A stretch of DNA of 63,468 nucleotides, the filler included, from a bacterium (GTDB taxonomy: Bacteria > UBA9089 > CG2-30-40-21 > SBAY01), in NCBI GenBank assembly GCA_040757115.1. It is 5 parts of 5 records of this genome, joined end to end, with 100 filler letters (N's around TTAATTAATTAA, not from the genome) between each part and the next. Parts side by side here need not be neighbours in the genome. Positions count along the whole stretch, not along the records: positions 1 to 31,731 come from JBFLYA010000017.1; 4 more parts are not named here. One strand, given 5' to 3'. Positions within the stretch are counted from its first letter, which is position 1; every line of letters begins with the position of its first letter. A program made the position numbers and the translations under genes. Below, piece after piece: positions 1,175 to 31,731 of this stretch. The notes under the pieces were generated by a model that was not told the origin of the DNA, searched no databases, and was given only the letters and a program-made list of their open reading frames with translations.

Positions 1175-1531
1175 ATGACTAAGCAATTTTCAACATACTT
1201 GTTAGATGAAATACTTTTGAAAGAAAAAATAAAAAGGGAGAATTTGCGTCGCCAACTAATCGAGAAGGTGCTAGCTACACTAACAAAACTTTCTGATAAG
1301 GTTAGTTTTAAAGAGGCATATCTGTTTGGTTCTATTGTCAATCCAAACAGTTTCTCCGAAAAATCTGATGTGGATATTGGCTTTGTTGATTTAAGTGACC
1401 GGGATTTCTTTAAAACTATGGCATTTATTTCAAGAGAAATTGGAATAGATGTTGATGTCGTTCAATTAGAAGGTCATCGTTTGGAAGAGAAGATAAAGGA
1501 TAAAGGTATAAGATGGATAAAGAAGGTTTAG
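1175..1531 (+). CDS. mntA: Minimal nucleotidyltransferase (MNT) antitoxin
   Basis: YLFGS...SDVDI Pol-beta NTase motif and later VDVVQL Asp; 118 aa; overlaps the downstream HEPN gene. Confidence 0.85.
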   Translation: MTKQFSTYLLDEILLKEKIKRENLRRQLIEKVLATLTKLSDKVSFKEAYLFGSIVNPNSFSEKSDVDIGFVDLSDRDFFKTMAFISREIGIDVDVVQLEGHRLEEKIKDKGIRWIKKV

Positions 1532-2007
1532 TTGTTCTAAAAGCTACAGTATCAAGGCAAATTGAGGAGATTGAAAAACTCTATGTTAGGATTGAGGACC
1601 GTAAACAAAAAAGAGGTAAATCAGGAATAGAAAGTCTTGCTTATCAACTACATAATCTCTATTGTGCCTTTGAAGACCTTTTTAAGATTGTGACTGATAG
1701 TTTTGATAATCATATCCAGAACAAAACCCATTACCATATAGAATTGCTAAGACGGATGACGATGACTATTGAAGGTATTCGACCAGCACTAATTTCTCAA
1801 GAAAATTATGAGTTATTGGATAATCTCAGAGCATTTAGACATCTTTTTCGGCATGCTTATTCTTATGAATTGGATGAAAGAAAAATAAAGATAGTTTTAG
1901 CCGACGCCATAAAATTAAAAAAACGCTACCAAAATGATATTAACATCTTTTTGAAAAGTATTGAGGGGAGACGGTCATCCCCGTTGGGGCATAAAGGAAG
2001 AAGATGA
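1513..2007 (+). CDS. hepT: HEPN RNase toxin (HepT-like) of an MNT-HEPN toxin-antitoxin pair
   Basis: LHNLYCAFEDLF helix and RHLFRHAY, which fits the R-X4-H-X-Y motif; 19-nt overlap with the MNT gene. The last ~10 codons come from a repeat element starting at 1976. Confidence 0.85.
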   Translation: MDKEGLVVLKATVSRQIEEIEKLYVRIEDRKQKRGKSGIESLAYQLHNLYCAFEDLFKIVTDSFDNHIQNKTHYHIELLRRMTMTIEGIRPALISQENYELLDNLRAFRHLFRHAYSYELDERKIKIVLADAIKLKKRYQNDINIFLKSIEGRRSSPLGHKGRR

Positions 2008-2087
2008 AAATGGGTTTGATGGTTCAGGTGAAATCAGGCTAAAGCCTGTGGCTACCAGCCTTCCCGAGTCCCGATTTTTAGAAGAAC
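1976..2087 (+). repeat. Dispersed repeat family E (CAT-hairpin...TGAAAAT...ATTTTYAG(A/G)AGAA)
   Basis: Related copies at 50921-51066 (+), 43838-43933 and 43937-44005 (-); left end only at 984-1017. Confidence 0.6.
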
Positions 2088-2094
2088 CCTTCAG

Positions 2095-2182
2095 CCTTCA
2101 ACCTGATTACGGACACGGAAAACGGACACGATTTACGAATTTTCAGTGTTTCATCCGTGTCCATCTGTGGCTGAATAGTTAC
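2095..2182. repeat. Partial GTAA-ended MITE (right end GGCTGAATAGTTAC)
   Basis: Resembles the reverse complement of the inner element starting at 44885 (GTAACTATTCAGCC..GATGGACACGGATGAAACAC). Confidence 0.6.
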
Positions 2183-2273
2183 TTTAATTTTACTTATAAA
2201 TTTCAATCCTTATTCGTATTCATAAACGGTAGAATTTGAGGACAAGACATATCGAAAAAAGATTGGAGAAGAG

Positions 2274-5200
2274 ATGAGTGGTTATTTTAAAAGTAAATTA
2301 GTTAGTTTCATAGTCATAAGTGGTATTGGACTGTTTTTATTTAACTCCAATGTTTGGGCGGCTACAACATTGTCCGTAGATTATATTAGTGGACCTGAGG
2401 TTCTCTACGATTCTACTACTGCCGGTCCCTCTCTTTTCACTCTGGGAGTGGCGATAAGAAACACGGGTGGTGAATCTGCCAATAATGTTATAGCTGTTTT
2501 AGATTTTGCCCCATCGGGTTCCTGGACTTATGGTTATGGAGAGGCAACCAGTAGCGGAACGATTACCTCCGGAACTGCTAGCCGAAGTTTTCTCACTCCA
2601 TTATCTCCTAATGCTACCTATACTGCCTTTTGGACAGTCAAATATCCTTGTCTCTCAGAGGGGGTTGTTCATACCTTTACCGTTACAGTAAGAGCTGATA
2701 ATGCCTCTCCCATAGTTTATAATGGCACACTTACGACTCACAATGTCGCAGCTACAGGTGTTGGTGGGACTCCAGTAGGAACATTACAAGGGATTGCAGG
2801 TGGAATTTTAGAGTTTGTGGTTACCTACGACTATGGTAATGTGGGAGCTAGTAATGCTGTTTATGTTCAACCTACAGGAAATAAAGTTGCAGTTGGTGCT
2901 ACTCCAGAGATAATTTTTGATGCCTCTATGTATCGGTTAACAGAAATATGGGGAACATATACCTATACAGATCTTTCTCCCTCTCCAGGGACATTTAGTG
3001 ATAAATTATACTTCCCAGCAGGTTTTCTTGGAAATGCTGCTTTTCTAACTGCCCATTATAAATTCCTTTGTCTGGCAGAAGGGCAAAACCGTGTAGTTCC
3101 GTATGGTGCGAAGGTAGGTGCGCAAAATCAATATAATAACTCATATAATGATGAGACTACTTATGTTACTTTACAGGGGAGCGTGACTTTGACATTAAAC
3201 AAATTTGTAGATTTTGGGACTATTACCCCAGGCGGGACACTTACCTATACCATTGTCTATAAAAATACCTCCGGCACTTATACGGCTAATTATGTTAGTA
3301 TTACGGATGTTATCCCAGCCAGCACTACTTATATCAGCCTTACCGGAAATGGTACTTATAATCCTACAACTAACAAGATTACCTGGGATATTGGGAGTAT
3401 TGGAACAAATACTCAAGGCACGGTAACTTTTAAGGTCAGGGTGAACAATGTTGAGGCGGGGACAATTACCAATATAGCTGAATTATACATTGCCGATAAT
3501 GCCAGCCCTACACTTGTTGCCAGTGTTACCACGACGGTTTATAATGTGCCGCCAGTAATTCAAGTTATCTCACCCAATGGTGGTGAATATTGGAGTGGAA
3601 CAAATACGATTAAATGGACATATTTTGATAGCAATGGCACAACGACTATTGGTTATGTGATAGCCTATTCTACGGCAGGAACTACCTGGATAGACATCAC
3701 TACCGGGACAGTAGCTGGCTTGGCACAAATAGGCACTTCAACTTATGACTGGAATGTTGGAACTCAGACAGATGGCACTTATACCATTCGTGTTGTTGGA
3801 ACTGATACCTATACAGGTGATTTAGGTCCTGCGCCTGGTAGAGGGACAGATACATCGGATGCCTATTTTACCATTGATAATACAGCACCACAAGTAACGA
3901 TTACTTCACCAACGATGAATAGTCCAGCGACAAAGTCAGCGGGACAAACAGTAAATATCTCCTTTAATTATACCGAATTTAGCCCTCAAACCTATACTGT
4001 CCGAATTTTTAATGGGGCGACGGTGATTGGAAGTAAGACAGTGAGTTCAGGATTAAACCCTGGAACGAATGTTGCTACCTCAACGGATGTATCTCTTTTG
4101 CTGACGGCTCAGAGTGGTTCCTACACCGTAGAGGTGGTAATGATAGATAACTTTGGTAGAACTGGCACAAGTAGTGAAGCAGGGGCGGTCCAGGTTAGAA
4201 ATCCAAAGGTAGAAATAGTCAGCACTGTCCCGACTAAAATTATTGATAATGAAAGCGATGATTTATTGAAAATAAGTATCTTCAATAACACCCCTACCTC
4301 ACCAATCGAATGGGCAAAGGTGGATATTAAATTTACTACCAATGGCACAACACCAATTACTGGAACTGAAGCGAGTAATTTATTCTCGCAGTTATGGATT
4401 GCCGTGGATAATGGTGATGGTATTTTTACTTATTTGGTTGACGATGTTCCGGCGACATCTACAACCGATTTTTCCTCTCTGGGCACAAGTGGGATTTTGT
4501 CTATAGTTTTCAATGATGGAGATTCAAATCTTCAAATAAGTTCTGGGGCAACAAAGACTTTCTTTGTCGTCCTCCAGGTAAAGCAGGATGCCAGTGCTCA
4601 AGGGACAAAGACATTTGTCGTCTCGATGGATGAAAACGGCACGCAAGGCACCAGTAGTAATTTAGAGTTCATTGTTGATGATGATGGGCTATCAGACAAT
4701 CCTCTGGTTTTAGAGCAAGAAGGGGCTGAGTTAGTTAGTTCTACTCAATGTGCCGCTGTACCAGAAGACCCAACTATAACCGTAACTGATACCGCCCCTA
4801 CTACCTTAAAAGATGGCAGTATTGATGATATTTTAAAGATAGCGGTTAAACATAATAGCAGTTCTCTGGCAGGAAATATCGAATTTGCCTACCTGACGAT
4901 GAAATTTACCTCAGATGGAATCCCTCTTACCGGCACAACCACACCTCAAGCACTATTCCAGAATATATTTGTCTTTCGTGATGGCACTACTACCGGTGTA
5001 GGGAATTATGGGTCAGAGGATATTTGTGTCGCCACAGTTACTCAGGGTAGTATTAGTTTAAGTTCAAACGGGACAATGACTATTAGTTTAGCAGACCCAA
5101 GTTCTTATACGGTTACCTCCTGGGGCACTACCTCTACATACTTTTTGGGGGTTGAACTGACTCAAGGGGCAAGTGGTTGGGCAACCAGGACCTTTGCGGT

Positions 5201-8200
5201 GACGGTGAATGCCATAGCAGGTGATGTAGTCATTGAGGATGAAACCACTGATACTCAACTTGGGATTAAAGATAATTCCTCAGGCTCAGTGCAATCTACT
5301 CAGGTAAAGGCTATCCCCAAAGATCCTGCTGTGGTTGGAACAAATACTGCTCCAGTTAATATCCCGGATGGTAGTGATGACGACCTTTTAAAGATAACCG
5401 TAACCAATACGGGTACTACAACTTCAGGAAGTATTGGGTTTGGGACTTCAACATTTAGATTTACCAAAGATGGCACTACTGCTTTATCTCCGCAGGATGC
5501 AAGTAGATTGTTTGCCTATTTCTATCTCTATCGGGATACAGGGGATGGTTCTTATAGTTCATCTACTGATAGTCGGGTGGCTACTTACACACCCTCCCTT
5601 GATACAAATGGTGAGCAGACCTTTGTTTTTGGCACAAGTGATACGAATTTCAAGACGGATGGAGGGACAGCCACTATCTATTTTCTTGTAGTCAAACTAT
5701 CTGGCACAGCGAGTGGTTATGCGACAGATACATTTGTTGCCGCGATAATTTTGGCAAAGACCTTTGATTGGCGGGATAAATTTGAATTATCCACGACATT
5801 TACCCCCGCGACATCTACCCAGGTTAAGGCAATTCCGGTTAAACCAGAGGTAGATGTAACCAATATTGCCCCTATCAAGATATGCGAAAATGAGAAAGAT
5901 GCACTTTTGAAGATAAAGTTAATTAATCCGGGTATGGGTGGGGCACAAGATATAAAGTTTGCCAGTGTAACGGTAAGGTTTGGAAGTCAGACGGATATGC
6001 AGTTGACCAGCTCACAGGCACAGGCTTTGTTTAAGAAATTGTATGTTTATTATGATGAAGATGGGAATGGGTTATTTGGGGCAGGTGATATAGTTGTTGG
6101 TAGTCTGACGCAATCAAATATCGCCGGGACAAATACCATTGAACTTGAGTCAGGCACGAGGACTACGGTTTCTGCCGGAGGCTCTGCTACCTATCTTTTA
6201 GTTGTAGAATTAACCGGCACGGCAAGTAGTACCTCACCACGCGTATTTATGGCCAAGATAAAGGAAGATACCGACCCGGTAGTCAGGGCAGGGGATACTA
6301 ATGAGCAACTTAGCCTAGCTACCTCTGACTTAGGGACATCCACACAGGTAACTGTGGTGTCGCCTAACCCTGATGTTGCGGCTACCTCTACCGCACCTTC
6401 CCCTTCAACGATGAGTGACTTACAAAAAGAGGATTTGCTGAGACTGACATTGACCCATAAAGGTATTTCAGGTTCACAGGATATAAGATTGGCTACCGTT
6501 ACTGTGAAACTTACCTCGAATGGTAGTTCGCCACTGGATACTCCGCAGGCAAAATCATTGTTTGACAAAATCATTATCTATTACGACACCAATGGCATCT
6601 TTGAAGAGAGTGATACGGTAGTTGGCAGTGTAACTAATGCCAATATCTCTCTGGATGGTGGTAAGCAGAAGATAGACCTTTACAATACCGCGGATGCAGT
6701 TGTTTCTGTAGGGAGTCCTAAATCATATTTTGTCGTGGTGGAGTTGAGGGGGACTGCCAGTGATTCTGGTGTTCGTACCTTTGCGGCAACCTTTGAGCCG
6801 GCTACTGATACTACGGTCAGGGATAATCTATCGAATATTATCCTGACGGTTAATCCGACCTCTTCGGTTACCACTGCCGTAATCACTGCTCAAGGCACAC
6901 CAACACCACCCAATGTTTATGTCTATGATTCAGCCCCGGCTTCAATTATTAGTGGTGAGAAGAATGACCTTCTGATGATAAAACTTGGGCATACGGGTGA
7001 TGCAAAGGATGCGGATATCGAGATGGCAAGTTTGAAAGTTAAATTTACTAATGGCACACCTACATTTACTGAATTGACTGATACTGAGGCGGCGAATTTA
7101 TTTCAAGCGGTCTATGTCTATCTTGACAGCGGCAATAATAACTATGATGAAAGTGATACCCAGGTTGGAGCAACGACTACTATTAAAGGGAGTACTACCT
7201 TTACCTTTACTGATGGAGATACAAATGTGCAGGTGCCTAAATCTGTTGGCACAAAGACTTATTTGTTAGTGGTGAAACTGACAGCCAATGCTAATGATTA
7301 TGGCACATTTTCCGCTACGATTGATGGCTCAAAGGTAGTTGCTCAGGATGCCAATACCGATGGCACACTTACCATCGGAGGTTATAATGTAGGCACATCT
7401 ACCTCATTGAAATCCGCATCAGCAGACCCGTCGATTGTAGTGGATAGCACCGGGCCCGGGACGACAACGATTGACCCAGACTTTGGCAGGATGCTCAATG
7501 ATGAAACCAATGATTTGCTGAGATTAAATGTGAGTCATCACGGCATTCCGGCAACGGTAGGACTTATATTTGCGACGGTTACAGTTAGATTTACTGATGG
7601 CAATAGTGATTTATCAACTCTCCAGGCAAAGGAATTGTTTGAGAATATCTTCATTTATCTGGATAATGGCGATTTTGAATTTGGTGGTACTGATACTCCG
7701 GTAGCCACAATTACTAATGCCCAGATAGACCTTTCTGGTGGCATTCAGAAGATAGACTTGCCCAATAATTCCTCTACTCAAATTGGCACAGGTGCAACCC
7801 AATATTACTTTTTAGTCATAGACCTGAAGGCAACCGCTACCCTGGGTGCGATAAACACATTTAATGCCATTATCGATGGTGAGGAATGCACCTTACGACG
7901 GCAGGATAACCTTGCTACACATACTATTAGTCCAACTACACCGGCGACATCTACCCCAACGACCAAAATCGTGATGAAAAATCCTACGGTAGATGTAGAT
8001 GATACTGCCCCATCACCGCCAACAATGACCGATGGTGAGCAGGAAGATTTGTTGCGAATTAAGGTATATCATGGAGAAACAGCTACTACTTTGCCCAATG
8101 TCCGATTTGCTACCCTAACTGTAACTTTCCTTGGTGGTAAGACAGGGGCAACTTTGACTACTACAGAGGCACAGAATTTATTCAGTAATGTCTGGATGTA

Positions 8201-11200
8201 TTTAGATTCTGGAAATGATGGCACATATAGTTTATCTTCAGACACTATTCGGGTAGGCACTGCTACAACCATAAATGGGGTAACTTCCATTTCTGTTGCC
8301 AGCAGCACAAATACCGTCATTGCCCCGGCGGGTTCAAAAACATACTTTCTCGTTGTCCAATTACGCAATGATGCCGTTAAGGCAAGTAAGCAAGGGACAA
8401 ATAGCTTTGCAGCCGTGATAAATAGCCTCTATGACCCATTCATAGTTGAGCAGGATAGTGGGTATCGATTGACTGTTTCTTCGCCAGATAGTCCGGTGAC
8501 TTCCGCTACGGTTACAGCACAGGGGGGCGTGCCCACAGCTACGGTTAATGTAATCAATACTGTGCCCAGCAATCCTTACAATATGCCAGATAGTGACATA
8601 GACGATTTGTTGCGGGTAGCAATTACTCATAATGGCACGACTACGGAGTCGTCAATGTGGCTATCACAGATGGAGGTAGTATTTGGCAGTTGGACTGCGG
8701 CTTTGACTACCGCACAGGCTAAATCGTTATTTAAGAATATCTACATTTACCTCGATACCGGGGATAACCAATTCCAAACAACAGATACCTTGGTGAAGAC
8801 AATCCCTAATGCTGAAATTCAAGGCACATTATCTATTGCCTTTACTAAGACGACAGAGACAACTATCGCTACAAATACTACCAAAACCTACTTTGTGGTG
8901 GTAGAATTGCAGGAAGATGCCAGTGGCACTTCGACACATACTTTTAATGCGGCAATTGATGGAGATACACAGGTCATTTTAAAGGATGTGAATTTAGAGG
9001 AAGGAGGAACGGTTACTATTTCTGCTACCAGCCCGGTGACTTCATCCAATGTGCGGGCAGTGCCAAAAAATCCGCAGGTAACAGTTTCTAATGTTGCACC
9101 TACAACTATAAAAGATGGGAATGAAAATGGTTTATTAAGAATACAAATAACTCATCCAGGAACTAAAACTGCTGGTAAGATAGAATTTGCTACATTGACT
9201 GTTAGATTTAAGAAACCAGATGGTACTCCTTTATTAGATACGGATGTGCAGGCATTATTTGGCACTGTAAGTGTTTATTATAACTCAGATACATTGGTAG
9301 GTAGTGCTACGGGTAATGCTATTTTAGGAACATTGGCTTTTACTTTTGATGAAAGTACATCAATGCAAATAGAAGGAGGAAGTTCATCTATCTATTTTGT
9401 AGTGGTTTCACTGACAGGTACTGCCAGCAGTTATGGTACAAAGACATTTATAGTAGAGGTGGGTAGTACTACAGATGTATTAATTGAGGCAGTTTCAGAT
9501 GATACCTTGTTAGATATTTCACTTACTCCCGGAAGTTCTACCTCAGTGACTGCTATACCTGAAAATCCAAAGGTAGAGGTATCCACGATTGCTCAAGCGG
9601 TGCTTCGAGACGATGGCCAGCCAAAGAATGGTTTACTGTCGGTGAAGATTACCAATACGGGTATTTCAGGTGCAGGGAAGGTGGAGTGGGGAACTTTGAC
9701 GCTGAGATTTACGCAAAGTGGAGGAAGTGCTTTGACCGGTGCTCTGGCAGAGAATTTATTTGAGAATATCTATGTCTATCTGGACGATAATCGTGATGGG
9801 ATATACACGGTAGCAAGTGATACAACTGTGGTAGGTAGTGCAAGTGATGTAAATAGTTTTATCAATAGCCAGGGTTATGGCACACTTACCTTCACCGAAG
9901 GCACAAGGACACAAATTACATCGGCATCTTATACGACATACTTTCTGGTGGTGGAACTGAAACCTACGGCAAGTGGTGCCTCACCTAAGACATTTGTTGG
10001 TAGTATTACCTCTACCTGGGTTAAGGTGCGGGATGAGCAGAGTAATATTGAGTTATCCTTAGATGGAGCCAGTTATGGCTCATCTACCCCGGCGGTAACC
10101 ATCATCCCAGTAGACCCGAGTGCTACCGTAACAGATACAGCTAAACTTATGTCCAATCTCCAGCAGAAGGATACGACCAAAGATGACCTGTTATCTATTT
10201 CCATTGGTAACAATGGCACATCAGGGACAGGGGCAGTGGAATTTGGGACTTTGGGTTTGAGATTTTTTGCTACTGCTACTACATCGTTATCTCCCACGGA
10301 GGCAGAGGCTCTATTTGAAAACCTCTTTATCTATCGGGATAACGGGGATGGTGTTTATTCTACCAGTACAGATACGACTGCTATTGCTACGATTACGGAT
10401 ATGACCAGCTTTTTAAATGGCCAGGGTTATGGCACAATGGCTATTTCAGAGAGCACAAATAGCCAGATTCAAGCAGGGACATCTAATACTTTCTTTATAG
10501 TGGTAGAATTAAAGAATGGTGCTAGTGGTCAAGGGACAAATACATATTTTGTTGAGGTTGGGACAGCAAATATTGGACTACGTGATGCGGTGAGTAATAT
10601 CCCGGTAGGGTTAACACCAAATAGCCGTGGGTCTGTTTCCACTAAGGTCATAGCCGTGCCATTAGAGCCGAGTATTCAAGTTATAGATACTGCACCCAAA
10701 AGATATTCAAGTGCAGAGCCGAGTATGACGGATAATGAAAAAGAGGATTTACTTCGTCTGAGAGTGACACATAACGGTGTTTCAACCAGTAGGCCGATAG
10801 AATTTGCCTCATTACGGGTGAAGTTCACGCAAGACCAAGCCTTGACCACGCCATTAACTGAGTCACAAATGGGAGGTTTATTTAAGAAGATATATGTCTA
10901 TTATAGCACAGACAATTCTTATGCCTCGCAGACAGATACAATAGCCATAGGCAGTGTGACTAACTTTACTAATTTTGTAGATACTGGTGGTTATGGAACG
11001 ATTACCTTCTCTGAAATTGCCGAGACAAAGGTTACTGGAGGAAATTCTAAATACTACTTCCTTGTGGTTGAGTTAACCGGGACAGCCAGTTTTCAGACTC
11101 CCAGGACATTTGTGACAACAGTAGATGCGGATGTAGATGCGGCAATCGAGTTGGCTACTTCTACTACAAGGATTGGTGTCCGACCTGTGGCTACGGTATC

Positions 11201-14200
11201 TTCAACTTTAGTTACGGCTCAATCCATTCCTGCTACTGCCAGTATCACTATTTCAAATACTGCCCCCAGTCCTCCGAACATCAAAGATACTAATGCAGAC
11301 GACTTACTCAGCGTTGTTGTCACACACACGGGTGATAGTTTAGATGCACCCATAGAACTGGCTACAGTTACAGTTTTATTTACTAAAGATGGGATGGTAA
11401 GTTTAACTACCGCAGAGGCACAAAGCTTAATTTCAGAGGTAGGCATTTATTATAGTGGTACCCGCATTGGTTATACCAGTATTACCAGTAATCCGCAGAC
11501 CATAAATATCTTTACTGGTAATTCCGACCCGCAGATAACTGCAGGTAATTCAAAGACATTCTTAGTGGTTGTGACTTTACAGTCAAGCGCCAGTGGTAAA
11601 GGGACAAGGACATTTGCGGTTTCATTAGGGCAGGCAGGAAATAATGTAGTCATTCAGGATGCTAATACCCAGATTGCTGTGCCTGGAACTTATACCCAGG
11701 TAGCCACTTCTACAGTTATTACTCCAATTCCTATTGACCCGGCTGTATCTGTATATGATTCCGCACCGGGTAGTGCTGGTCATCTTGACCCACCGACGAT
11801 GACGGATGGAGAGAAAGAGGATTTACTGAAATTAGTGGTTACTCATAGTGGGGTATCAGGTGCCGGAACGATTACCTTTGGCACACTCTCATTGAGATTT
11901 TTTGGCACGCAGTCTGCAGGATTGACTGATTCGCAAGTGCAATCACTGGTCAAAACAGTCTATCTGTTCTTAGACAACGGGAATAATAATTATGATAATG
12001 GGGGAGTGGATATAGATGTTGGCAGTTGCACAGAGACAAATGTGGGTAGTTTGACAATATTGGTTTTTGATACTACGAATCCGAATATGCAGTTTGCTGG
12101 TGCTGGCTCGCGGACATATCTGTTAGTGGTTGAATTAACCGGGACTGCAAGTTTTCAGGCAACGAAGACCTTTGGTGTAAAGGTAGATGGTGATACAGAT
12201 GCTAAAATTATGGATACCCGTGATAGCATACTATTGAGTATCGTTCAAGTAAATACAGTTAGCTCAACACTAGTCACTGCAGAGAAACCACTAACCGGAA
12301 CTTCGGCTACGGTAGTAGTAAGCGATGTGCCTGCACCTATCTATTTAAAAGATGGAAATACTGATGATATTTTGAGGTTAGAAATATCACATACCGGGAG
12401 TTCGACTGAAGCAACTTTGGAATTTGCTCGGTTACGGGTAAGGTTTAGTAATGGTGCTCCAACATTTACACCATTGACTACTCAGGAGGCACAGAATTTG
12501 TTTGATACAATCTGGGTTTATCGGGGGACTTATACTGCAGGAGGAGTAAAGATAGCGACGGTTACCTCAGGGAGCATAACCTTAACCAATGGTATCGGTA
12601 CCATTACCTTTACGGATAACGACCAGAATTGCTGGATAGAGCCAGGGGCAACGGCAACATTCTTCGTAGTAACAAATCTAAAAATTAATGCCAGTGGTTA
12701 TAACACACGCACATTTGCCTTCGCCGTGAATGTAAATAACGGTGGGACAGGCACAGATGTTTGTGTAGAAGATGCCAATATGGATAGAGAGGCAGCTATT
12801 GATTCTAATCCTACTTCCGCAACTTCAACCACTACGAAGGCTATTCCTGTTGACCCATCTGGCTCGGTAACCCTTCGGGACATACCTTATGGTTCGATTA
12901 AAGACAGGGCAAGGGATGATATTTTAAGGATAGATATTACACACAATGGCACCTCTACGGCCGAGAAGGTAGAGTTTGCTACGGTGACTGTCCGCTTCAA
13001 GCGGCAGGATACATTGGCTTTATTGAGTAATGCGGATGTGCAGGCATTATTTGGCACCGTGTCACTTTACTGTGATGCAGGTAAAGATGGGAGTTTTTCG
13101 GGTGATGAGATTGTGGGGTCGGCGACTGGTAGTGCGGTAATTAACCCATTGATATTGACACTGATAAAAGGGACATCGACCAGAGTTACTGGTGGTTCTT
13201 ATTCTACATATCTTTTGGTGGTGGAACTTACAGGGACTGCCAGTGGCTATTCTCCAAAGACCGTTCTTGCCTGTGTCAATGAATCTGGTGATATTAAGAT
13301 TGAAGACAGCCGTGATGATATTAACCTTTCAATGAGCCTTAGTCCTGGCACCTCTAATTCTCTAACTGCCGTGCCGATTGACCCAACTGTAACGGCTACT
13401 AATACCAGCCCTTCTATCATTAAGGATGGGCAGAAGGATGATTTAATCAGTATTACCATCCAGAATACCGGTGAGGTATCAGCAGGAAAGGTAGAATTTG
13501 CCACTCTGACTGTATGGTTGGGGAGCAATGCAACTACCTATCTGACTACCACTCAGGCACAAAGTCTATTTAACAATATCTTTGTTTATTATGATTCTGA
13601 TAGCAATGGGGTTTATGGGACAAATACGGATGTCTATGCCATTGGCACGGTAACTAATGCCGGGCTTTCTGCTTTAAATAATGGCACTTTGACCATTGTA
13701 TTGGATACGGCTAACCAGTATAGCAAGGTTTCTGCTGGTTCGTCAAATACATATTTTCTTGTTTTTGAACTGAAAACCACTGCCTCTACTCATACCACCA
13801 AAAGTTTTATGACCAGATTTGGTCCGGAGTCATACACCTGTGTGCGTGATGAAGCCTCTGATATTGGGCTACCGATTGCCAGTGCCAGTCAAGGGACGCA
13901 GTCAAGTATTGTTTGGGCAATTCCAGTTGACCCGAGTGCTACGGTAACCTCAAGTTCCTCGGTTTATCAGAAAGATACTTCGGTAGATGACTTACTCAAG
14001 GTAGTGATTACCAACAATGGTGTTATTGGTGCAGGCAAGATACGGTTTGCCACCTTGACTGTGCGATTTGGCAGTGAAGCCACAACAGGATTTACCAATG
14101 ACCAGGCACAAAGCCTGTTTGAGCGGGTAAATGTTTATTGGGATTCGTCAAATAATGGTTTTTCTCAGGCGGCAGATGATTATTCTGTAGGCACGACAAC

Positions 14201-20200: not shown

Positions 20201-23200
20201 GACATCAAGTGTGATAACTGAGGTTTCAGGCAATCAAATTAAGGCTCAAATGAGTATTGATTTACCCGAGGTAGATGCTACCTGGATTTCTGCGGGTGCA
20301 ACTAAAACCTACTACTTGCAGATAACACTGCTTGGCACGGCATCGAGTAAGGCAACACGGACTTATTCTGCGACTGTAAATCCGTTAGCTGGCGATGTGC
20401 GCATAGAGGATAAACCACATGACATTAAACTCTACCTTGGTGCAGGCAGTTCTGGAGCGGCGACATCTACGACAATGACTGCTATTCCGGTAGAGCCAAC
20501 TGGAACTGTAACTTCTACCTCGCCAATTCAGATACGGGACGGGACGCAGGATGATTTACTTAAATTGGTCATTACCAACAACGGCATTTCAGGGGCAGGG
20601 ACGATTACACTGACTTATCTACGGCTACGATTTTTTGCTACTTCGACCCTTAATCAACAGCCCATACCACCGATGAGCACCCAGACAGCAGAGGCACTAT
20701 TTGAGAATGTATTTATTTACAAAGAAACAGTTAATGATGGCACCTGGACGACTGGTGATACAATCGTGGGGACGGTAAGTGATTTATCTACCTTCCTTGA
20801 TGCACAGGGGCAGGGGACTGTAACATTAGCCACTTCAACTACCTGGACACCAGCCGCTTCATCGACCACTTACTTTGTGGTGGTAGAGTTAAAGGGTTCA
20901 TCAAGTGCCGTAGCCACAAAGACATTTAGTCTAGCAATTGTTTCAAAGGAAGATGTTGCTGTCTTTGATACGACCAAAACATCTATCAGATTGAACCTTA
21001 CTGCTGATAGTACCAGCGGGACATCAAGTAAAACTACTGCCGTGCCTCAAGACCCACGGGTAGAGGTAACTGACATTGTGCCGTGGCAAAACTTAAGAGA
21101 GGGGAGTTATATGTTGCGGGATGGTGATGAGAATGCCCTTTTACGAATTAAGATTATCCATACAGGGTCATCTACTGCTGGGAGTATCGAATTTGGGACT
21201 TTAACAGTCTGGTTTGGGTCTGATACCAACACAGCGCTAACAGGCACTCGGTCGAGTGAATTATTTGAGTATGTCCGTATTCATTTAGATGGGGATAATA
21301 GTGGAACATACACCGCAGGCTCAGACCTAATTTCTGTTGGCACTATGCCACTTACCCTAACAAATGGTTATGGGACAATTACCTTTACTGAGACAAATGA
21401 TGTTCAAGTCTCAGGTGCTGGGTCAAAGACTTACTTCCTGGTAGTCAAGTTAAGAGGGATTTCTACCGCTAAATTACCAAAGACATTTTTTGCCAAAATA
21501 GGAACATCATCAGTTGGAATTCGTGATGCAACAAGTAACTTATCCTTACCATTAGACTCAGCCAGCTATGGTAGCCAATCGACCATAGTCTATGCAGTGC
21601 CGGTTGACCCGACCGTTAAGGTTTATAACACGATAAGTGCAAGCAGTCCGTATCAGATAGATGGCACTTTTGAGGATTTACTACGGATAGAAATACAGAA
21701 TAACGGTAGTCCCACGACTGAGGCAATTGAATTTGCCACCTTGACTGTGAAGTTCACGGATAAAGATGGTAATCCAGTAGCCAATTCCACGGCAAAGAAT
21801 TTATTCAAGAATATCTTTATCTACCTTGATAATGGAGATGGCGTGTATAACCAGGGTTCAGATATTGTGCCGATTGGCACGATTACTAACGCTCAATTAT
21901 CATTAGATGCCGCAGGTTACCAGATAATTAACTTTACTGATAATGACTTAAATGCGACTATTGCCAGTAGTACTACGCGGAGTTACTTTTTAGTAATTGA
22001 ATTGCGTGGCACGGCGTCTGGTTATGCCAGCAGGACATACAGCGCTGAGGTTGGAACGGCAAATGTAACTATCAAAGATACTATCCACAACATTAAATTA
22101 TATTTAGACCCGGCGAGTATTGGAGCAAAATCAGGCACTATGACCGCTATCCCGATTAGTGCTACGGTTACTATAACCAATATTATCTGGCGAACAGACC
22201 CACGAATACCAGGGACAGTTACCCCACCGGTGCAAATGACCGAAGGAGAAAAGGACGCCATCTTCTTGATTGAGATAACCAATAATGGTGGTTCTGGTGC
22301 AGGTGCGATTGAATTTGCAACATTGACCGTATGGTTTGGAAGTAATACCATGATGGCATTAACGCAGGCACAGGCCGCGGCTATCTTCGGCACATTCAAT
22401 GTCTATCTTGATGTGGATAATGATGGGACATACAGTTCAGGAATAGATACTGTGCCAATTGGCACCTTCACTCGAACGGAATTTACTGCAGATGGCACAA
22501 TGAGTATCAGATTGCAGGATAATAGTCCTTATGCTACGGTAACTCCAGGGGCGACAAAGAAATATTTCCTTGTCGTAGAATTAGTTGGCACTTCAAGTAG
22601 TGCCACTCCGAATACCTTTGTTGCCAGAGTAGATGCGGATGCAGATTGTTCGATAGAGTCGGCTTATGATGATATTCTTATTAGCGTTGGCTCTACGGAA
22701 GCAACCTATTCTACACAGGTGGTCATTACCGGCACAGCCTCACTACCTAAATTAATCGTTACGCCTATTACGATTAATACCGGTATTGCTGATACCAGGG
22801 ATAAAGAGATTTTAAAACTAACTTTAATCCATCAAGGCGATGCCAATGAGGCGGCAATAGAATTCAGTCAGGTGAATCTCAGATTTACATATTCAGATGG
22901 TAATTTGATGACTACTGACAAGGCACAAAGGCTATTTGACTACATAGCAATTTATTATGATGAGGGTAATAATGGGGTTTATGATAGGGGTGCGGATAGG
23001 AACATAAGTCAGCATTTACCGTCTTCGATGATTAATGGGTCATTGACATTTACCTTTGAAGATGGGTCGTATTCCACGCGGATTAAACCATCAGGTAGTA
23101 GTCTTCCTAATTCAATCAACGCTACTGCTACCTACTTTTTGGTCATAAAGTTAAAGCCAGATGCCAGTGGCACAAGTAATAAGCAGTTCTATGTGAATAT

Positions 23201-26200
23201 AGATACTGATAATGCACGAGTAGAGGATGCGGATACTGATGACAAATTATACCTGGCGATTGAAAGTCAGTCAGGGACATCCACTTTGATTACGCCAGTG
23301 CCAATTGACCCACGAGTAACGGTGATAAATCAAGCCCCTGTTCCAACGATGCGCGACCTGGATATGAACGATATTTTAAGTATTACCTTACATCATTTAG
23401 GCACACCAACTTCAGGTGATGGTTGGTTTGCTACCCTGACTGCTACTTTTAAAGCCTGGCAAGGTCCTCAAGGTACACCTATACCGATGGCAACTGAAAC
23501 ATTCTATGCCTTATTTGGAACGATTAGTGTGTATCTGGATGAGGGAACGCAGACTGAAGGCGGAACATGGACTCTAACTGATACACCTATTTTAACCATC
23601 CCTGCGGCAAATTTTACTACAACAGGAAGTTATACCATTACCTCCGGCGGCACAATGACCATATTTATACCTAAAGGAACGGATACTCGGTTATCACCGG
23701 TTGGCGGTAGTTATCCGGCTACAAGGACTTATTTTCTCGTTGTTTCAATTAAGGACACCGCCAGCGGGCATGGAAGTGATAGTTTTGTCGCCACAATACA
23801 AGAAGCCGGAACGGACACTGATTCGATTAGAGATGTTTTATGCCGTGAGTGGGAAACAGATTCAGCGATGTTGATGTCCTATGGCAGTAGCTCAGCCAGT
23901 CCCGGTTCTGTAACTATTAGTGGCACGATTACCTGCATCCCGGTTGACCCGGAGGTAGTGGTAACCGATACTGTGCCACTTTTGCCTCTGCAATCGCCTG
24001 CCCGAATGCGTGACCTGGTGGATATAGACGATGTCTTGCGGATAATGATTATTAACAAAGGCACACCCACGGCTGGGAAGGTAGAGTTTGGCACAGTGAC
24101 CGTCTGGTTTGGTAGTGATGCCAATACACCGTTGACCTCTGCCCAGGCAAAGGACTTGCTTGGCACAATTACAGTAGTCCGTGATGTAGATGGTAATGGT
24201 TCGTTCACGACGGCAGATGATACGGCTGTTATTGGCACATTAACTGCCAGCCAGATTACTACGGATGGCACCTGGACTATCCCGCTGTTAGAAAATAGTA
24301 GTGCAGTGGTGGAAGCAGGTACACAAAACGCCTTCTTTGTGGTTGTCCAGCTAAAGGATTCTGCCAGCGGGACACAGACCAGGACATTTGTGGCAAGGAT
24401 TGCAACGGCTACACTGATTGAAATACGGGATGAGGCAACTAACTACGCCTTACCAGTAAGTGGCACACCAGCGATCTCAGGTCAGGTAAAAGCTATTCCT
24501 GTTGACCCAACTGGACAAGCCTTTGATACCGCTCCTTTGTGGATGTTTGATAATCAAAAGGATGATTTACTTAGATTGAAGATAACCCATAATGGTGTTC
24601 AACGGGCAGGAACGATTAGTTTTGGGACATTGAGTATCGGATTTTTGAAAGACCCTGCAGTATTTTTATCATTGGCGGATATGCAGGCACTATTTGGGAC
24701 AGCCAGTATATATTGTGATAATGGTGATAATGTGTATGATAGTGCTTTAGATACTACTTCCATAAAGACTATACTTGCAGGAGACTATGGTAGTTCCTTC
24801 TTAGGAGGCACACTTACCTTTGTATTTAGTGATGCGGATGTAAATACGGAAATTGGTGGTGCGGGCTCCAGAACCTACTTTTTGGTTGTAACGATGCTGC
24901 ATGATGCCAGTGGCTATGCCACCAGGACATTTTTGGTGCAAGCAGATATGGACCAGGATGCAAAAGTAGAAGATGATAGAGATAACATACGCTTGAATTT
25001 AATAGCTACTCCATTAATCACATCAACACAGGTTATCCTTATCTTACCTGAAAATCCGACGGTATATGGTTCGGATACAGCACCCTCTACCCCAGCTACA
25101 ATGGAAGAAGGGGAAAAGAATGATTTGTTAACCATCCAGATTAAACATAACGGCACACCTGAAGCAAGACCGATTGAATTTGGCACATTGAGTTTGCATT
25201 GGACACGGGATGGTGGCGTAACACCACTTACTGATGCTCAGGCACAACGATTGTTTAAGAATATCTTTATCTATCGTGATGTGAATGATAATAAGGTATA
25301 TGAACCGTTGATAGATACAGTGGCTATAGGCACGGTGACTTCAGGGAGTATTACATTAACTAATGGGTCGATGACTATTGTTATGGCAGATTATTCAGTA
25401 GGGGGAACATACACAAGTTGGGTATCAGCAGGGTCAAAGACGGCATTTTTTGTAGTGGTAGAGTTGACCGATGATGCTCGAGGTGCACCGGTAACTACCT
25501 TTGATGTTGAGGTTTATGGTTCAACATCATTTGTAGGGACAGATACTACGGTGGGTATTCGGGATTCAGAGGCAAATGTGCCACTTTATATCTATTCTTC
25601 AGGACTACCCGTCAGGTCAAAGACGGTAAGTGTCTATGAAATTCCTGAAGCAATAACCATTATCTATCCTCATAGTGATGAGGTAATTGTTGGCACTATA
25701 ACTGCTGATGCAGTGGCTTATGGTGATGCGGATAAGGTGTATTTCTGGGTTGAACAGATAGGAACTACTACCTACTGGAATCTACAAGGTAGTAGTGGTT
25801 CGAAGACAATAGATAGTTATCGTGCAGATGGTTGGAATGCATATTGGACTACAAAGGCATTTTCAGATGGCACTTGGACACTCTGCGTAGAGTCATTCAA
25901 TCAGTATAATTCCTCAATGGCAACCGATTCTGTGAGGATATTCATTGATAATACCCCGCCAGTAGGCACAATTACCATAGAAGCAGGTGCAACTTATACC
26001 ACTACACAAGATGTGATATTAACACTTACCTATTACGATAATATTGCGGGTGTGGATTTGGTGAGATATGGGACAGATGGCACGAACTGGCTGGAATGGG
26101 AATCACCAACTTTGACAAAGATTTGGACACTATCGGCAGTTGAACGCACTCATACTATCTGGTATCAACAAAAGGATAAGGTAGGCAATATCGGCACAAA

Positions 26201-29200
26201 GACTTCTGATTCAATTTACTTAGACTTAACTGCACCTGTCGGCACTCTGACCATTAATCAAGATGCAGTCTATGCTACCACAACGGCGGTTTTACTCAGC
26301 TATACCGTAGAGTCAGATACAACAGGGATAAGATTTAGTAATGACCTGGTGGTCTTTAGTTCCTGGGGAACACCAACTATTCCTACGGGCACACAAGCCT
26401 GGACATTATCTTCTGGTGATGGGTTAAAGATAGTTTATATGCAATTACAGGATGCCGCAGGCACAATCACGACGGTGCGAGACTTGATTATCCTGGATAC
26501 GCAAGGACCTGGTTGCACAGTAGTTATTGATGAACACGACCTCTATACACGCAATGCTACCGTAACATTGACTATCTCTGCCTACGACCCGTTCTCAGGA
26601 CTGGGGAGTATGAGATTTTCCAATGACAATAATAGTTGGTCTTCATGGGAAACATACTATACAGGGACTAAGTCCTGGAGTTTAACTACCGATGCAGGAG
26701 GAACTGCAACTAACGGCACTCGACGGGTATATGCCCAATTTAGAGATAATGCAGGTAATATATCTGCTACCTATACCGATAAGATAGTTTATGATACCCA
26801 GCCACCTATTCCTGGTAGTGTAGTCATAAATGGTGGTGCGGCATATTCTACCAGCAAACGGCTTGAATTTGACTGGTCTGGTTTTACCGATGCCACTACA
26901 GAAATAAAAGGATACTACTATGCCTTTACCGATGGTGCTGGAACCACAACCGGGACATATACTACGGCTACCTCTGGCAGGCTTTATGGCGCAGCCGAAG
27001 GCACTGTCACTGTATATGTTTGGGCAGTAGATACGGTTGGCAATATTGGCTCTTCCTGTAGTGATTCTATCTTTGTAGATACTGTATCGCCAGTAGTCAG
27101 TAATGTCAGCATCAATGGTGGAGCGGTCTATGCTACAACTACTATTTTGACCTTTAGCTGGGCTGGCACAGATACAACCCCTGCCTCTGGAGTTAAAGGC
27201 TATTATTACTCATTTGAGAATAATGGTGGTAGTAAGAATGGTGTATTTACTACATTACTTACCGGCACACTAACGACGCCACTCCAAGGCACAGTTACTA
27301 TCTATGTTTGGGCAGAAGACAATGCGGGCAATATCGGGACATCTGCCGCTGATACAATTATCGTTGATGTCTCACCACCTGTTGGTCAATTGTCTGCTGA
27401 TAAGACTTATGTGAAACAAGGCGATACAGTTACCTTCTACTATAATCTTAAGGATTCACAGAATATTACCTCAGTTCAGATTTTAGCGGATGAGTTGAAG
27501 AAGATAGATGGTAGTGCCAGCTCAACACTTGACTTAAGAGACAATGGGCAAGGGGCGGATTTGGTTGCTGGCGACTATATCTTTACCGGCACTCATACTA
27601 TCACCGGGACGGCAAGTGATGGGTTAAAAGAAATCTATGCCACAGCCACAGATTCTGCTAATAATGTATTTACTTCAAAGGTAAAGATTACGGTTGATAT
27701 GACACGACCAGTGATTAATTGGGTGCAAATTAATCAAGGAGCAACCTATACCACAACCAACTTCTTAGATATAGTTTGGGTAGGTCAGGATACAACTTCA
27801 GGGATTGCCTGGTACTATTATTCATTCAGGGATGGTTCTGGGACTACACAGGGCTTGATGACTACAGGAACAGCAACACAACTGGGCACTACTACGCAAG
27901 GCACAATCACTGTTTATGTCTGGGCAATGGATAATGCCGGCAATATTGGCGGCTCAAATTATGATAGTATCATTATGGATACCCAGGGACCAGTGGTGAA
28001 TATTACTGCACCTGCGACCGGGGTAATTCGTCGGGGAACAGTATCAGTTATATTCACTGGTGTAGATTCAATTGTGAGTATTTCTGGGACACCGACCATT
28101 TATATTGATGGAGCGACTTACACTACACAATGGTGGCCACCTAATGGCACATATACCTGGCTAACTTCTAATTTTAGCGATGGCAGTCATATCTATAAGA
28201 TTCGGGCAATAGATACTTTAGGAAATATAGGGGAATCGGAACTGCAGGTATTAATTATTGATAATTCAGCACCTGGCGCACCCATTTTAGCTCAGCCGCC
28301 ATCTCCTACACGCTTTGCTACGATTACTATAAACGGGACAGCAGAAGGTTCATCTACCGTTACCCTTTACCTTAATAGTGTAGAATATGGGACGGTGAGT
28401 GCTTCTAATTTGGGGACATTTAGCCGTTATGTAGTTCTTTCACAACAAGGGTCAAATACCATCACGGCACGAGCCACAGACCTACTCGGTAACGGGCCAG
28501 GATTGGAGTCATTGCCAGTAGTGGTTGTCTATGATTCTGGCACACCGAGCCTTACCTTAGGAACTGTAGAGCCTGGCAGTTCCAATAATGTTGCTATTTT
28601 GGGGACAGCGACAGATTTAATTACTGCTGTGCGGGTGGAGTATCAACTCGATTCTAATCCTGCCTGGATTTCGGCTACGCCAAATGATGGCGTATTTGAT
28701 TCCGGCACAGAGGCATTTACCATATTCCTATATAATTTAGCCGATGGCACACATACCGTTGTGGCAAGGGCAATTGACCAGGCAGGGAATATTTCATCCA
28801 GCCAGACCTGGACATTCCAGATAGATACTACGGGTCCTGTGACGACCAATCTTAGTCTATCTGCCATTGTAACTAATAGCACGATTACTATTTCCGCCCA
28901 AATTACAGATAGCCTTAATCCCGTAGTTGAGGCACGATTCTATGTCGATACCTATCCGTCAACCGGGACATTAATGGTCGGCACAGGTAGTCTAAGCAGT
29001 CCTGTTTATGGCACACTAAATATTAGTAATTTAGCAGATGGCACGCATCTCCTCTATGTGCGTGGTAAGGATAGTCGTGGTAACTGGGGTAGTCCGCAGT
29101 CAACTATCTTCATTGTGGCAAAGGCAAATATTGTGGTGGTAGTTAATCCAGTGAGTCCTGACCCGCTGGGGACGACTACCTTGCGAAGTACGGGTTATGC

Positions 29201-31731
29201 CGCAGATTCAACCGCTAAGATTACCTCTTTGAATTGGACATTAATTAGTAGCACCGGGACGATATTAGCAAGTGATTCTATCTTGCCTAAAGATGGCACC
29301 TTTGATGAATTAGAGGAGGAGTTTGATTTTGGCACGGTGTCATTATGGCAGGGGACTTTGACAATGTCCGTGCGGGCAGGTGATGAGGCAGGAAATTACG
29401 GGACGGGCTCAGATACCTTTGTCATCGATATTGGCACGTCTACGATTGAATTAGGAACTATTCCGTCACCTGCAACAACTAATGATGTCTCCATTTTAGG
29501 CACGGCATCAGATACACTTACAACTATCACTACGGTAAAATATCGCCTGGATTCTGGTAATTGGTTAGTGGCATCTGCTAATGATGGTATTTTTGATGAG
29601 GCGATGGAAACCTTTACTATTTACCTCTACGAACTATCAGAAGGAACACATACCGTCAGGGTAATTGGTGTTGATTCAGCCGGGAATGAATCTATGGAGA
29701 AGACCTATTCATTCCAGATAGATACACGAGGACCTACCGTATCAAATATTCAAGTGAACTCTAACCCAACTAATGCTACGGCTACCTTAAGTGCTACTTT
29801 GACAGATTCGCTAAACAATGTTTCATCAGCAGAATTCTATATTGATACTTACCCAGGGACAGCAACAGCGATGGCAGGTGTGTTTGGTAGCCGCACAGTA
29901 AATGTAACAGGCACTATTTCAATTACAGACCTTGCTGAAGGTCAGCATCTGGCATATATTCGTGGTAAGGATAACCTTGGTAACTGGGGTGATGTAGGCT
30001 TTATTTTATTTACGGTAGATAAAGGCGGGTTATTTGTTTATGTTACGCCAGTATCCCCAGACCCGGCAGGGACCACTACCGTTACAGTGAAAGGTTATGT
30101 GCAGGATGGAAGTGTGGTGATTAGTGCCATTGCCTGGCGATTGGATAGTGGTACCTGGACTTCGCTACCAGGTCCATTTGGAGACCTTAAAGAGGATTTC
30201 TCTATTCAGGTTGGAGTTACTACTGATGGTCCTCATACGGTTACAGTGCGTGGGACAAATACTGCGGATAGTTCTGCCGAAGGATATGATACATTCGTTA
30301 TAGACCGAGGGACTCCGAGTATAACTTTAGTTTCATTGTCAGGTGTGGTAGGTAATGACATCAATCTAACAGGGACTGCAACGGACAGCACAACTAAGAT
30401 AGTTGATGTCCGATATAAGATTGATACTGGCGCCTGGAACTCTGCTTCTTCGATGGATGGTGCGTTTGATGAGGCAACGGAGACATTTACTATCGCCCTG
30501 GTTGAATTACCTGAAGGCACACATACACTTACTGCGCGGGCAGTAGATGAGGTGGGAAATTACAGTAGTGAGGTTGTTAGAATATTTTGTGTAGATACCA
30601 GAGCACCTGAGGTAAATATCTATGCAGTAGATGGTGCTACCCCTGGGTCAAAGGTATTGGCAGGCACGGTTGATGTGGCATTTATCGCTTATGATACCGT
30701 TACTTCGCTTATCGGCACTCCAACCATATTAGTTGATGGTAACAATTGGGGTTATGCACAGGTCTGGACTTCTACTACCGGCTATGGCACTTATTCCTGG
30801 AATACAACCTCCTTACCCGATGGTGCTCATACATTACAGGTGATGGCAACAGATACAGCGGGTAATGTTGGTTATTCTTCCTTAAGGACAGTCATTGTTG
30901 ATAATGTTGTTACCAGTGTTATTACGATTACCAACCCTGTGTCTGGCTCACGAGTCTCTGGGACAGTAACTATCAGGGTTTCAGCACCTGCAAATACCCA
31001 GTATGTTCGATTCCAGGTAGGGACGGAGGCTAACTGGTATAATCCAGTCAATGGCACAACTACGCCGCCGTGGGGAACAGATACAGATGGTAGTGATAAT
31101 TGGACATTCTACTGGCGGACGCCTCTATTCCCAGATGCCAGCAATTATAAAGTTAGAGCAATAGCTTATGCGACAGGGAGTGTGGTGCTTGGTACGGCAA
31201 CCAATACTGAGATTACGGTAGATAATACCCCAGGGACAGTAACTTTTGGCACTATACCCGCGGTTGTTTCCAGAACATTAGTAGGCACGGTAACTGCCGC
31301 TTCGGATGTTGACCAAGTATTATTTGAATATCGGAAAGAAGGAACAGTAGAATGGTATCCAATCTCTCTCGACATCTCCCCACCATTTGGTTTCTCATGG
31401 AATACACTTGGTGTAGAAGATGGGACTTATACCATAAAGGCTACACCTAAAGATACTATGGGTACAGGTACACCGAATATCAGTAATGCCTTTAAGGTGG
31501 ATAATACCGCCCCGGCATTGGTCATAACGAGTATAGATGGTGCAATAGTCGGGGCAAAGGTATTAGTTGGCACAGTAGCAGTAGTATTTACGGCACAGGA
31601 TACGACGAGCTGGATAGAAGGGACAGTGACGGTGTTGATAGATGGGAATGAGGTTGGTTCAGCGAGTTACTGGACAGCACCCAATGGCACATATACCTGG
31701 GTAACACAGAATTATCCGGATGGTGCCCATA
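2274..31731 (+). CDS. Giant secreted repetitive surface protein or adhesin (>9,800 aa, 3' truncated by contig end)
   Basis: Open frame of ~29.5 kb with GGAG RBS and Sec signal peptide (…FNSNVWA|AT). DUF11-like domain ~3190-3530; 39 repeats of ~183 aa (~4200-25630); then ~95-aa Ig-like (Big) domains with D-x-T-x-P linkers and a choice-of-anchor-X-like motif LRDNGQGADLVAGDYIFTG (~27535-27590). The stop at 31787 is inside the artificial linker. Confidence 0.92.
17769..21680 (+). repeat. Recent tandem duplication of a three-domain block inside the giant gene
   Basis: Equivalent GCCGTGCC starts at 17769, 19401 and 21039 (periods 1632 and 1638 nt). The first two copies are nearly identical in protein; the third is partial and more diverged. 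Confidence 0.9.

Follow-up and report, generated by a model that had tools for sequence, protein, structure and literature searches.

A giant, probably adhesive surface protein built on 39 repeats with the fold of a sialidase lectin module in a relative of Candidatus Desantisbacteria

LapA, MpIBP and SiiE are giant adhesins rich in immunoglobulin-like (Ig) domains and serve here as points of comparison. Fibrillar adhesins as a class combine a long polypeptide with a variable tip, a stalk of tandem beta-sandwich domains and an anchoring end, and tandem adhesive domains that double as stalks have been discussed for them (PMC8286594). Uncultured bacteria, too, are known to have a class of giant, repetitive proteins at the surface (PMC11573180; bioRxiv 10.1101/2023.11.21.568195). 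The gene described here lies in a stretch of 63,468 nucleotides from GenBank assembly GCA_040757115.1 (the window), which holds five contigs of one bacterial genome with N-spacers between them; the gene occupies the plus strand of the first contig, C79 (JBFLYA010000017.1, window positions 1-31731), from 2274 to 31730. We read its product, with a probability of roughly 0.65, as a giant fibrillar adhesin-like surface protein of a diderm bacterium related to Candidatus Desantisbacteria that leaves the cell by a route like that of type IX secretion systems (T9SS). It would share with fibrillar adhesins the long polypeptide, the variable tip, the tandem beta-sandwich stalk and a putative anchoring end. 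In contrast to these and to the giant Ig adhesins, its stalk unit is twice the size of an Ig domain and has the fold of a lectin module, and the tip can be missing. It also differs from repeats-in-toxin (RTX) adhesins of the type I secretion system in having an apparent signal peptide and no RTX or type I secretion signal. Comparisons within the phylum cover 25 genomes, designated by G-numbers and including the genome of the window (G000); P-numbers denote homologous proteins, and C- and L-numbers denote contigs and loci.

The open reading frame begins with ATG behind a likely ribosome-binding site read from the sequence (GGAG, 2265..2268) and continues for 9,819 codons to the last base of the contig with no stop, so that its 3′ end is open. 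Residues 1-29 (2274..2360) look by inspection like a Sec-type signal peptide with a basic N-region, a hydrophobic core and a VWA/A cleavage pattern. An iterated hidden Markov model (HMM), which converged at a length of 183, places 39 repeats at amino acids 641-7791 (4194..25646), joined head to tail by short Pro-rich junctions, with a period of 165-213 residues (mean 183) and no match in 20 shuffles of the protein. The repeats have diverged to a mean pairwise identity of 33%. The exception is a tandem duplication of a three-repeat block (repeats 26-28 and 29-31, 17775..21047), whose copies are 88-95% identical in protein sequence with a synonymous divergence (dS) of 0.33 and a ratio of nonsynonymous to synonymous divergence (dN/dS) of 0.14. 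An earlier sequence-only reading of this DNA had proposed a secreted protein of more than 9,800 residues, open at the contig end, with 39 tandem repeats of about 183 residues and a described consensus, a short helix inserted in each repeat, and no RTX nonapeptides. All of this held, including the last point: the pattern GGxGxDx[LIVFY] occurs 0 times in the 9,819 residues.

By sequence the repeat belongs to no catalogued family. The whole protein gave no match for it in Pfam or NCBIfam, Pfam searches with each of the 39 repeats were equally negative, and a PDB sequence search with repeat profiles A1 and A3 returned neither a match for the repeat nor a sialidase (profile A3, contaminated by FG-GAP flanks, is left out of the family counts). 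An AlphaFold2 model of a single repeat, computed from a 39-row alignment, reached a mean predicted local distance difference test score (pLDDT) of 96 and a predicted template modelling score (pTM) of 0.92 and shows a beta-sandwich with the inserted helix at model residues 59-65. The best Foldseek matches of this model are sialidases of glycoside hydrolase family 33 (GH33) from Bacteroidota (E 5e-6). A wide structure search over 48,161 chains ranked two sialidases first (Z 11.7 and 11.1, next 7.7), and closer comparison aligned 143 residues with positions 34-198 of Tannerella forsythia NanH at Z 13.2, with 2.5 Å as the root-mean-square deviation (rmsd). The top 16 structural matches, with the predicted model as query, were all sialidase N-domains (Z 10.6-13.2), and the following row scored 7.9. 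The matched domain is carbohydrate-binding module family 93 (CBM93, Pfam PF14873), a reported binder of sialoglycans (PMC9472817). Identity of the repeat to CBM93 domains is 12-17%; for scale, the CBM93 module of Porphyromonas gingivalis PG0352 matches Sialidase26 at Z 12.2 with 16.9% identity (PMC10553830). The modelled repeat thus has the CBM93/BNR_assoc_N fold, and the likeness to the solved sialidases (T. forsythia NanH 7qxo, Bacteroides thetaiotaomicron 4bbw, PG0352 8gn6) extends over the whole domain. It is not, on the curated sequence test, a member of PF14873: none of the 39 repeats matches that model at E up to 1, and none of the 25 genomes has a match above its cut-off, with a positive control in B. 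thetaiotaomicron, and plasmids gave nothing on the repeat. The repeat is also about 30 residues longer than CBM93 and stands here in 39 tandem copies; each solved CBM93 domain, by contrast, is a lone module next to the propeller of a sialidase. The sequence-only reading had called the repeat unrecognised and pictured a beta-sandwich stalk. The first statement stands for sequence, in that no curated family matches over the full length, and fails for structure; the second survives as a beta-sandwich fibre whose unit has a fold already known from sialidase N-domains. Cohesin reached Z values of up to 7.9 at an rmsd above 4 Å, within the background range, with no Pfam cohesin match, and a viral fold library gave weak matches only (best template modelling (TM) score 0.42).

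The fold itself suggests a different reading, in which the array is a multivalent lectin rod, a CBM93-type glycan cleft is retained in most repeats, glycan preference possibly differs from position to position, and the head plays an accessory part. Known ligands of CBM93 domains are sialoglycans and glycoproteins (PMC9472817; PMC10553830), forms with no head occur in four genomes, and the repeats keep their positional identity across genera and partly across families, all of which would suit such a rod. Several polar columns are conserved among the 39 repeats (D/E18 in 37, K/R26 in 30, H/N31 in all 39, D/E159 in 33 and S177 in 35). When the PG0352 cleft residues Trp36, His40, Lys53, Arg95 and Ser169 are compared by a gap-free count from the aligned range ends, Lys53 and Ser169 fall at or next to columns 26 and 177, which is a lead only. 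The same count leaves Trp36 and His40 with no counterpart, and the 39 repeats have no conserved Trp column. Furthermore, binding of the PG0352 module to glycan arrays was only weak, and residues of the catalytic domain also take part in its fructose site. Positional conservation is also seen in purely structural arrays, and we consider the lectin rod possible, though doubtful. A glycoside hydrolase domain was not found in C79 or in the two related contigs discussed below, C309 and C48 (part of the gene is unassembled).

The repeat profile found 902 proteins at E up to 1e-3 among 1.84 billion representatives. Domain scans of 58 of the 150 listed matches detected FG-GAP repeats in 54 and PF14873 in none. 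Among the matches listed, 147 were re-detected by HMM, and 135 of these carry just one or two copies; an FG-GAP-like motif precedes the domain in 112 of the 135, at a median distance of 22 residues. The repeat domain is therefore a widespread module that usually sits behind a propeller and has been amplified in this phylum. Single copies directly behind FG-GAP beta-propellers were seen in many proteins of other lineages (P0013-P0150). In integrin alpha chains the thigh domain takes a comparable position behind a propeller, an analogy that carries no claim of homology; integrin alpha chains themselves appeared only as weak Foldseek rows (TM below 0.4), and the likeness of layout would likewise be one of analogy. 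Among the matches listed, full-length long arrays of labelled origin come from this phylum only, save for one NCBI record: P0004, a 1,614-residue fragment about 75% identical to the array, is labelled Cyanobacteriota bacterium, by mis-binning or by transfer. In the ESM Atlas, the homologue P0008 has PF14873-labelled neighbours at TM 0.60-0.67 and unnamed clusters from Zixibacteria and Patescibacteria at TM 0.71-0.74; the Patescibacteria neighbours include proteins with a peptidoglycan-binding domain.

The sequence-only reading had taken the array for a calcium-stiffened stalk that keeps the N-terminal region away from the cell and works as an adhesin, tether or sheath; put narrowly, it would be a passive spacer whose sole job is to project the N-terminal head. 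The acidic loop behind the helix is real in part of the array: the strict motif Dx[DN]x[DN]G occurs in 8 of 39 repeats against 0.28 expected from shuffles (maximum 2), and a shorter variant in 11 more. Residue D/E74 is kept in 33 repeats, D18, D23 and D159 are conserved, and the short Pro-rich junctions would also suit a stiff spacer. Calcium binding by part of the array is therefore plausible from the motifs. However, 20 of the 39 repeats match neither motif, several of them as near-misses, and repeats 10, 14, 27 and 30 lack the loop altogether, so calcium stiffening cannot rest on the loop in every repeat, and calcium at the loop cannot be a requirement of the fold. NF033510, a model of calcium-stabilised Ig domains, has no match to the repeat and one weak match in the Ig tail (16.6 against 50 bits). 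What had been taken as an N-terminal region of about 300 residues is a pre-array region of about 610, comprising the variable head proper with its two unnamed beta-domains (amino acids 30-303, 2361..3182), a DUF11 domain (3183..3545; PF01345 at amino acids 306-405, E 1e-12, and TIGR01451) and two Ig-like domains with borders set by inspection (amino acids 425-640, 3546..4193), which resemble Ig-rich proteins of the same genome. In four relatives, G008, G019, G005 and G006, repeat 1 directly follows the signal peptide. The first of these is the closest relative, a member of the same genus that has no head, although two of its housekeeping proteins show 97-99% identity to those of G000. A stalk holding a head is thus an incomplete description, and a mere spacer is rather improbable.

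Where heads occur in the relatives, they vary. The head of G000 is common to G009, G010 and P0151, that of G004 is a DUF2341 domain, and those of G023 and P0010 are of a parallel beta-helix type. The model of the G000 head is too poor for trust (pLDDT 47, second half below 50); its first domain looks Ig/CARDB/DUF11-like, with Atlas leads below 0.9 to DUF11/CARDB clusters. G009 is 79-87% identical to G000 in housekeeping proteins and 62-74% in 11 of its 12 repeats, but 92-96% in the first three head domains, and repeat 10 of G000 is 89% identical to that of G009 and 67% to that of G008. These values suggest that the head and single repeats have recently been exchanged between genera, on the thin baseline of two marker proteins. 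Heads that are variable, absent or recently exchanged fit the expectation for adhesins. The array itself is found in 10 of the 25 genomes, G000 included, and in four of eight families. In G008, 23 of 23 repeats correspond to the repeat of the same number in G000, as do 12 of 12 in G009 and 26 of 28 in G010, and dN/dS is 0.16-0.19 for the repeats against G008 and 0.24 for the head region against G009. The array is under purifying selection and its repeat order is conserved. Its length varies: G004 has a complete array of 22 repeats, and scaffold C2 of G021 has 29. In a quick tree of G000, G010, G004, G019 and G021, from which G008, G009, G005, G006 and G023 were left out and matches shorter than 130 residues dropped, repeats of the same position cluster across genera and, for some positions, across families.

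The array is followed by a tail of about 2,000 residues (25647..31730), estimated from its length at 21 ordinary Ig-like domains of the Big_13, Big_7 and OmpL47 types in blocks of one to three according to Pfam and NCBIfam scans, and then the contig ends. Unfortunately, no contig end in the bin overlaps that of C79, and a scan of metagenomes for the missing end brought up no relative. The best guide is scaffold C2 of G021, on which the 29 repeats and an Ig tail are followed by a gap of N and a 901-residue frame ending in a FlgD-Ig-type domain. The best G000 match to this frame is contig C48 (40.5%, E 7e-58; next E 7e-16), a 1,973-residue frame open at its 5′ end, whose Ig blocks resemble the C79 tail and whose end passes the cut-off of PF13860 (FlgD_ig). 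In 14 of the 25 genomes this type of end module is matched exactly once. We consider it probable that the gene ends in the FlgD-Ig/T9SS-type sorting domain on C48, for a total of at least 11,792 residues, and more with the possible middle piece C309 (Ig blocks 44% identical, no overlap) and a collapsed repeat at the contig end. The suggestion that the export signal would lie in the missing C-terminus has in this way been followed to a candidate domain across a join deduced from the relative. Two other giant frames were rejected as continuations on account of a different repeat of 86-90 residues and no end overlap with C79. One, C1, is a single frame of 28,375 residues over its whole 85,129 bp, open at both ends and largely made of IPT-like repeats; the other, C211:2032-26835, encodes 8,268 residues of the same IPT-like repeat with a FlgD-Ig-type domain at its end.

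About 1 kb downstream of the C48 end, beyond one short frame, is a gene of the PorV family (NF033709, 112 against 90 bits) that falls far below the cut-off of the stricter PorV equivalog NF033710. A predicted complex of the C48 sorting domain with this adjacent barrel scored 0.86, against 0.00 for the best of three controls; at least 95% of contacts are common to the runs, and the partners have a pLDDT of 86 or more. Of 157 solved complexes, 116 reached the mark used for such scores, as did 2 of 215 mismatched pairs; these counts are only rough with the alignments used, and the pass may reflect likeness to solved complexes of PorV with a sorting domain (C-terminal domain, CTD). The genome has 42 FlgD-Ig matches and, spread over 27 loci, 28 UPF0164/PorV-like matches; 12 of these loci follow a FlgD-Ig match at a distance of no more than 1.5 kb. 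It also has five C25-family genes, Omp85 and a SprA-like frame of 2,011 residues (C435:177-6209; three colinear matches, best E 4e-31). SprA-like matches occur in all 25 genomes, always under the cut-off. The FlgD-Ig-type sorting domain, PorV-family barrel gene, SprA-like gene, C25 family and Omp85 are common to this genome and to T9SS type A cargo systems of Bacteroidota; the differences are that this host stands outside Bacteroidota and that its sorting domain and SprA score below the cut-offs. The 12 neighbouring pairs resemble the cognate cargo-shuttle pairing of type B substrates, known in Flavobacterium (PMC12618676). A search for GldM and GldN found neither, but the profiles were silent in control genomes too, and it covered these two components only. 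The SprA-like protein, PorV-like loci and FlgD-Ig domains, with no GldM or GldN detected, amount to a possible motor-less T9SS-like system outside Bacteroidota.

The protein might also be purely structural, a sheath, capsule-like coat or cell-cell tether with no specific ligand, in which the repeats supply length and stability and are probably O-glycosylated. Ser and Thr make up 24% of the protein, and in G019 a gene for a TMEM260-like O-mannosyltransferase is found upstream of the array (L032:3855-5261), which suggests glycosylation of this fibre protein; a similar-looking gene was seen by eye in G021 (L037:190-1470). The sorting module occurs widely in the phylum as a single copy, headless forms exist, and the peptidoglycan-binding domain among the Patescibacteria structural neighbours would suit an envelope protein. 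On the other hand, exchangeable heads (DUF2341, beta-helix or the D1-D2 pair) and their exchange between genera speak for outward-facing recognition, and no array was found in 15 of the 25 genomes, all of them fragmentary bins. We regard a purely structural role as unlikely.

The adhesin-like reading can be put together as follows. Sec would carry the protein to the periplasm, a SprA-like pore would export it across the outer membrane, and the PorV-family barrel encoded behind the C48 end would bind the sorting domain and either hold the protein at the outer membrane or shuttle it there. The array would point outward as a rod estimated at a few hundred nm in length. This estimate assumes about 4.5-5 nm per repeat, from typical domain sizes. 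An exchangeable head, where present, would touch surfaces, matrix or other cells, the repeats themselves would probably add weak contacts of their own, and in about half of them the acidic loop may bind calcium. Attachment, by the tip where there is one and possibly by many weak contacts along the array, is the most likely function. A number of observations weigh against this scheme. No ligand was found, the head matches no catalogued adhesive domain and nothing in Pfam, and the fold model covers a single repeat, so that a rigid chain is presumed. The C48 end scores 19.7 against 23 bits under the T9SS type A sorting model TIGR04183, and the SprA-like protein 106 against 200 bits. C79 and C48 share no DNA overlap and differ in GC content at third codon positions (0.37 and 0.28), and the link by way of G021 has to bridge a gap in the scaffold and a change of frame. 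Six genomes have the C48-type end with no array, and G005 and G006 have arrays with no such end, all in fragmentary bins. Finally, in G021, G023 and G020 the gene behind the sorting domain looks by inspection like recR and not like PorV. A bolder account, that a single sialidase accessory lectin module was amplified to a position-conserved glycan-binding rod of 22 to 39 units with an optional tip, and that this rod is the flagship cargo of a phylum-universal T9SS-like route with a dedicated PorV-family barrel per cargo and no known GldLM motor, strikes us as improbable when taken as a whole.

With a gene of this size, the assembly deserves scrutiny. Read mapping, which the sequence-only reading had named as the check for a chimera, gave a flat depth of about 340x on two long unitigs (about 2157-17864 and 21105-29801) in run X1, the sole run with full cover; it is possibly the source sample and hence not independent. 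The unitigs break at the duplicated block of repeats 26-31, both copies of which have single-copy depth in their unique pieces, and at a short tail repeat near 29.8-30.1 kb. At the contig end, depth climbs over the last 200 bases to 1,312-3,416 against about 339 upstream, and no other contig of the bin contains the 25-mers of this end. Most simply read, the gene runs on into a near-identical repeat, probably collapsed from roughly 4-10 copies, the start of which is at 31496..31731; the alternative is a summed depth from other organisms. The relative G004 has a 3,040-nucleotide duplication, 99.4% identical, in a comparable Ig region. An assembly artefact or a read-through of a non-coding repeat could be suspected in a bin of 462 contigs whose only fully covering run may be its own source. 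With repeats that average 33% alike, flat depth along long unitigs, colinear orthologues in G008, G009 and G010 and dN/dS values of 0.14-0.24, such an explanation is practically negligible, and the orthologues largely refute it. A second run, X2, held scattered pieces of relatives and was not used as habitat evidence.

The bin that contains the gene measures 4.3 Mb at 99.9% completeness, and the runs with this DNA are labelled groundwater metagenome. The host is related to Candidatus Desantisbacteria; the only database homologue found for the head is a protein with that label (66% identity). Its Omp85 and flagellar L- and P-ring genes mark it as a diderm. Upstream of the giant gene, the window has a weak DUF1761-like membrane protein and then an MntA/HepT-type toxin-antitoxin pair separate from the fibre (492-2007 together; the pair at 1175..2007, plus strand, from Pfam and NCBIfam); by eye, a similar nucleotidyltransferase/HepT region also precedes the array gene of G005 (L055:201-1049). 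Further upstream are a multi-copy element at bases 1-135 and a dispersed AT-rich element of about 160 bp at 240-399. The latter has 247 matches on 185 contigs, 81 of them near full length at 90% identity or more; 147 of the matches reach the end of a contig, so the element is probably behind much of the assembly fragmentation. The other contigs of the window (31832-63468), unlinked to the gene, encode a DDE transposase in two frames, two B12-binding radical S-adenosylmethionine genes, argJ, the flagellar P-ring, L-ring, FlgA and two rod genes, an EPSP-synthase-family gene, ribonucleotide reductase, a fused GT4-GT9 glycosyltransferase, a pyridoxal-phosphate-dependent decarboxylase and a 3′-open protein of 1,448 residues with a weak squalene-cyclase-type match. 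Frames of at least 2,000 residues number 26 in G000 and make up 7.6% of the genome.

Size alone is not what is new, as the frame on C1 of the same genome is larger. In the literature searched, which covered few subscription papers, no paper turned up that describes the repeat, CBM93 domains in tandem arrays, or Desantisbacteria proteins that are giant or T9SS-like; the main text of the giant-gene preprint has no mention of Desantisbacteria (bioRxiv 10.1101/2023.11.21.568195), and its supplements, outside that search, could list the gene. What the locus adds is an uncatalogued domain family of 902 representatives that predicted structure ties to CBM93, together with a concrete surface protein and a candidate export route for a phylum with no cell-surface papers in the same literature. 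Single repeats are predicted to fold with high confidence and should be easily expressed, so their glycan and calcium binding is open to direct assay. For the family as a whole, the comparison suggests that CBM93 may be one branch of a wider superfamily, whose members serve as a propeller-adjacent module and as a stalk unit.

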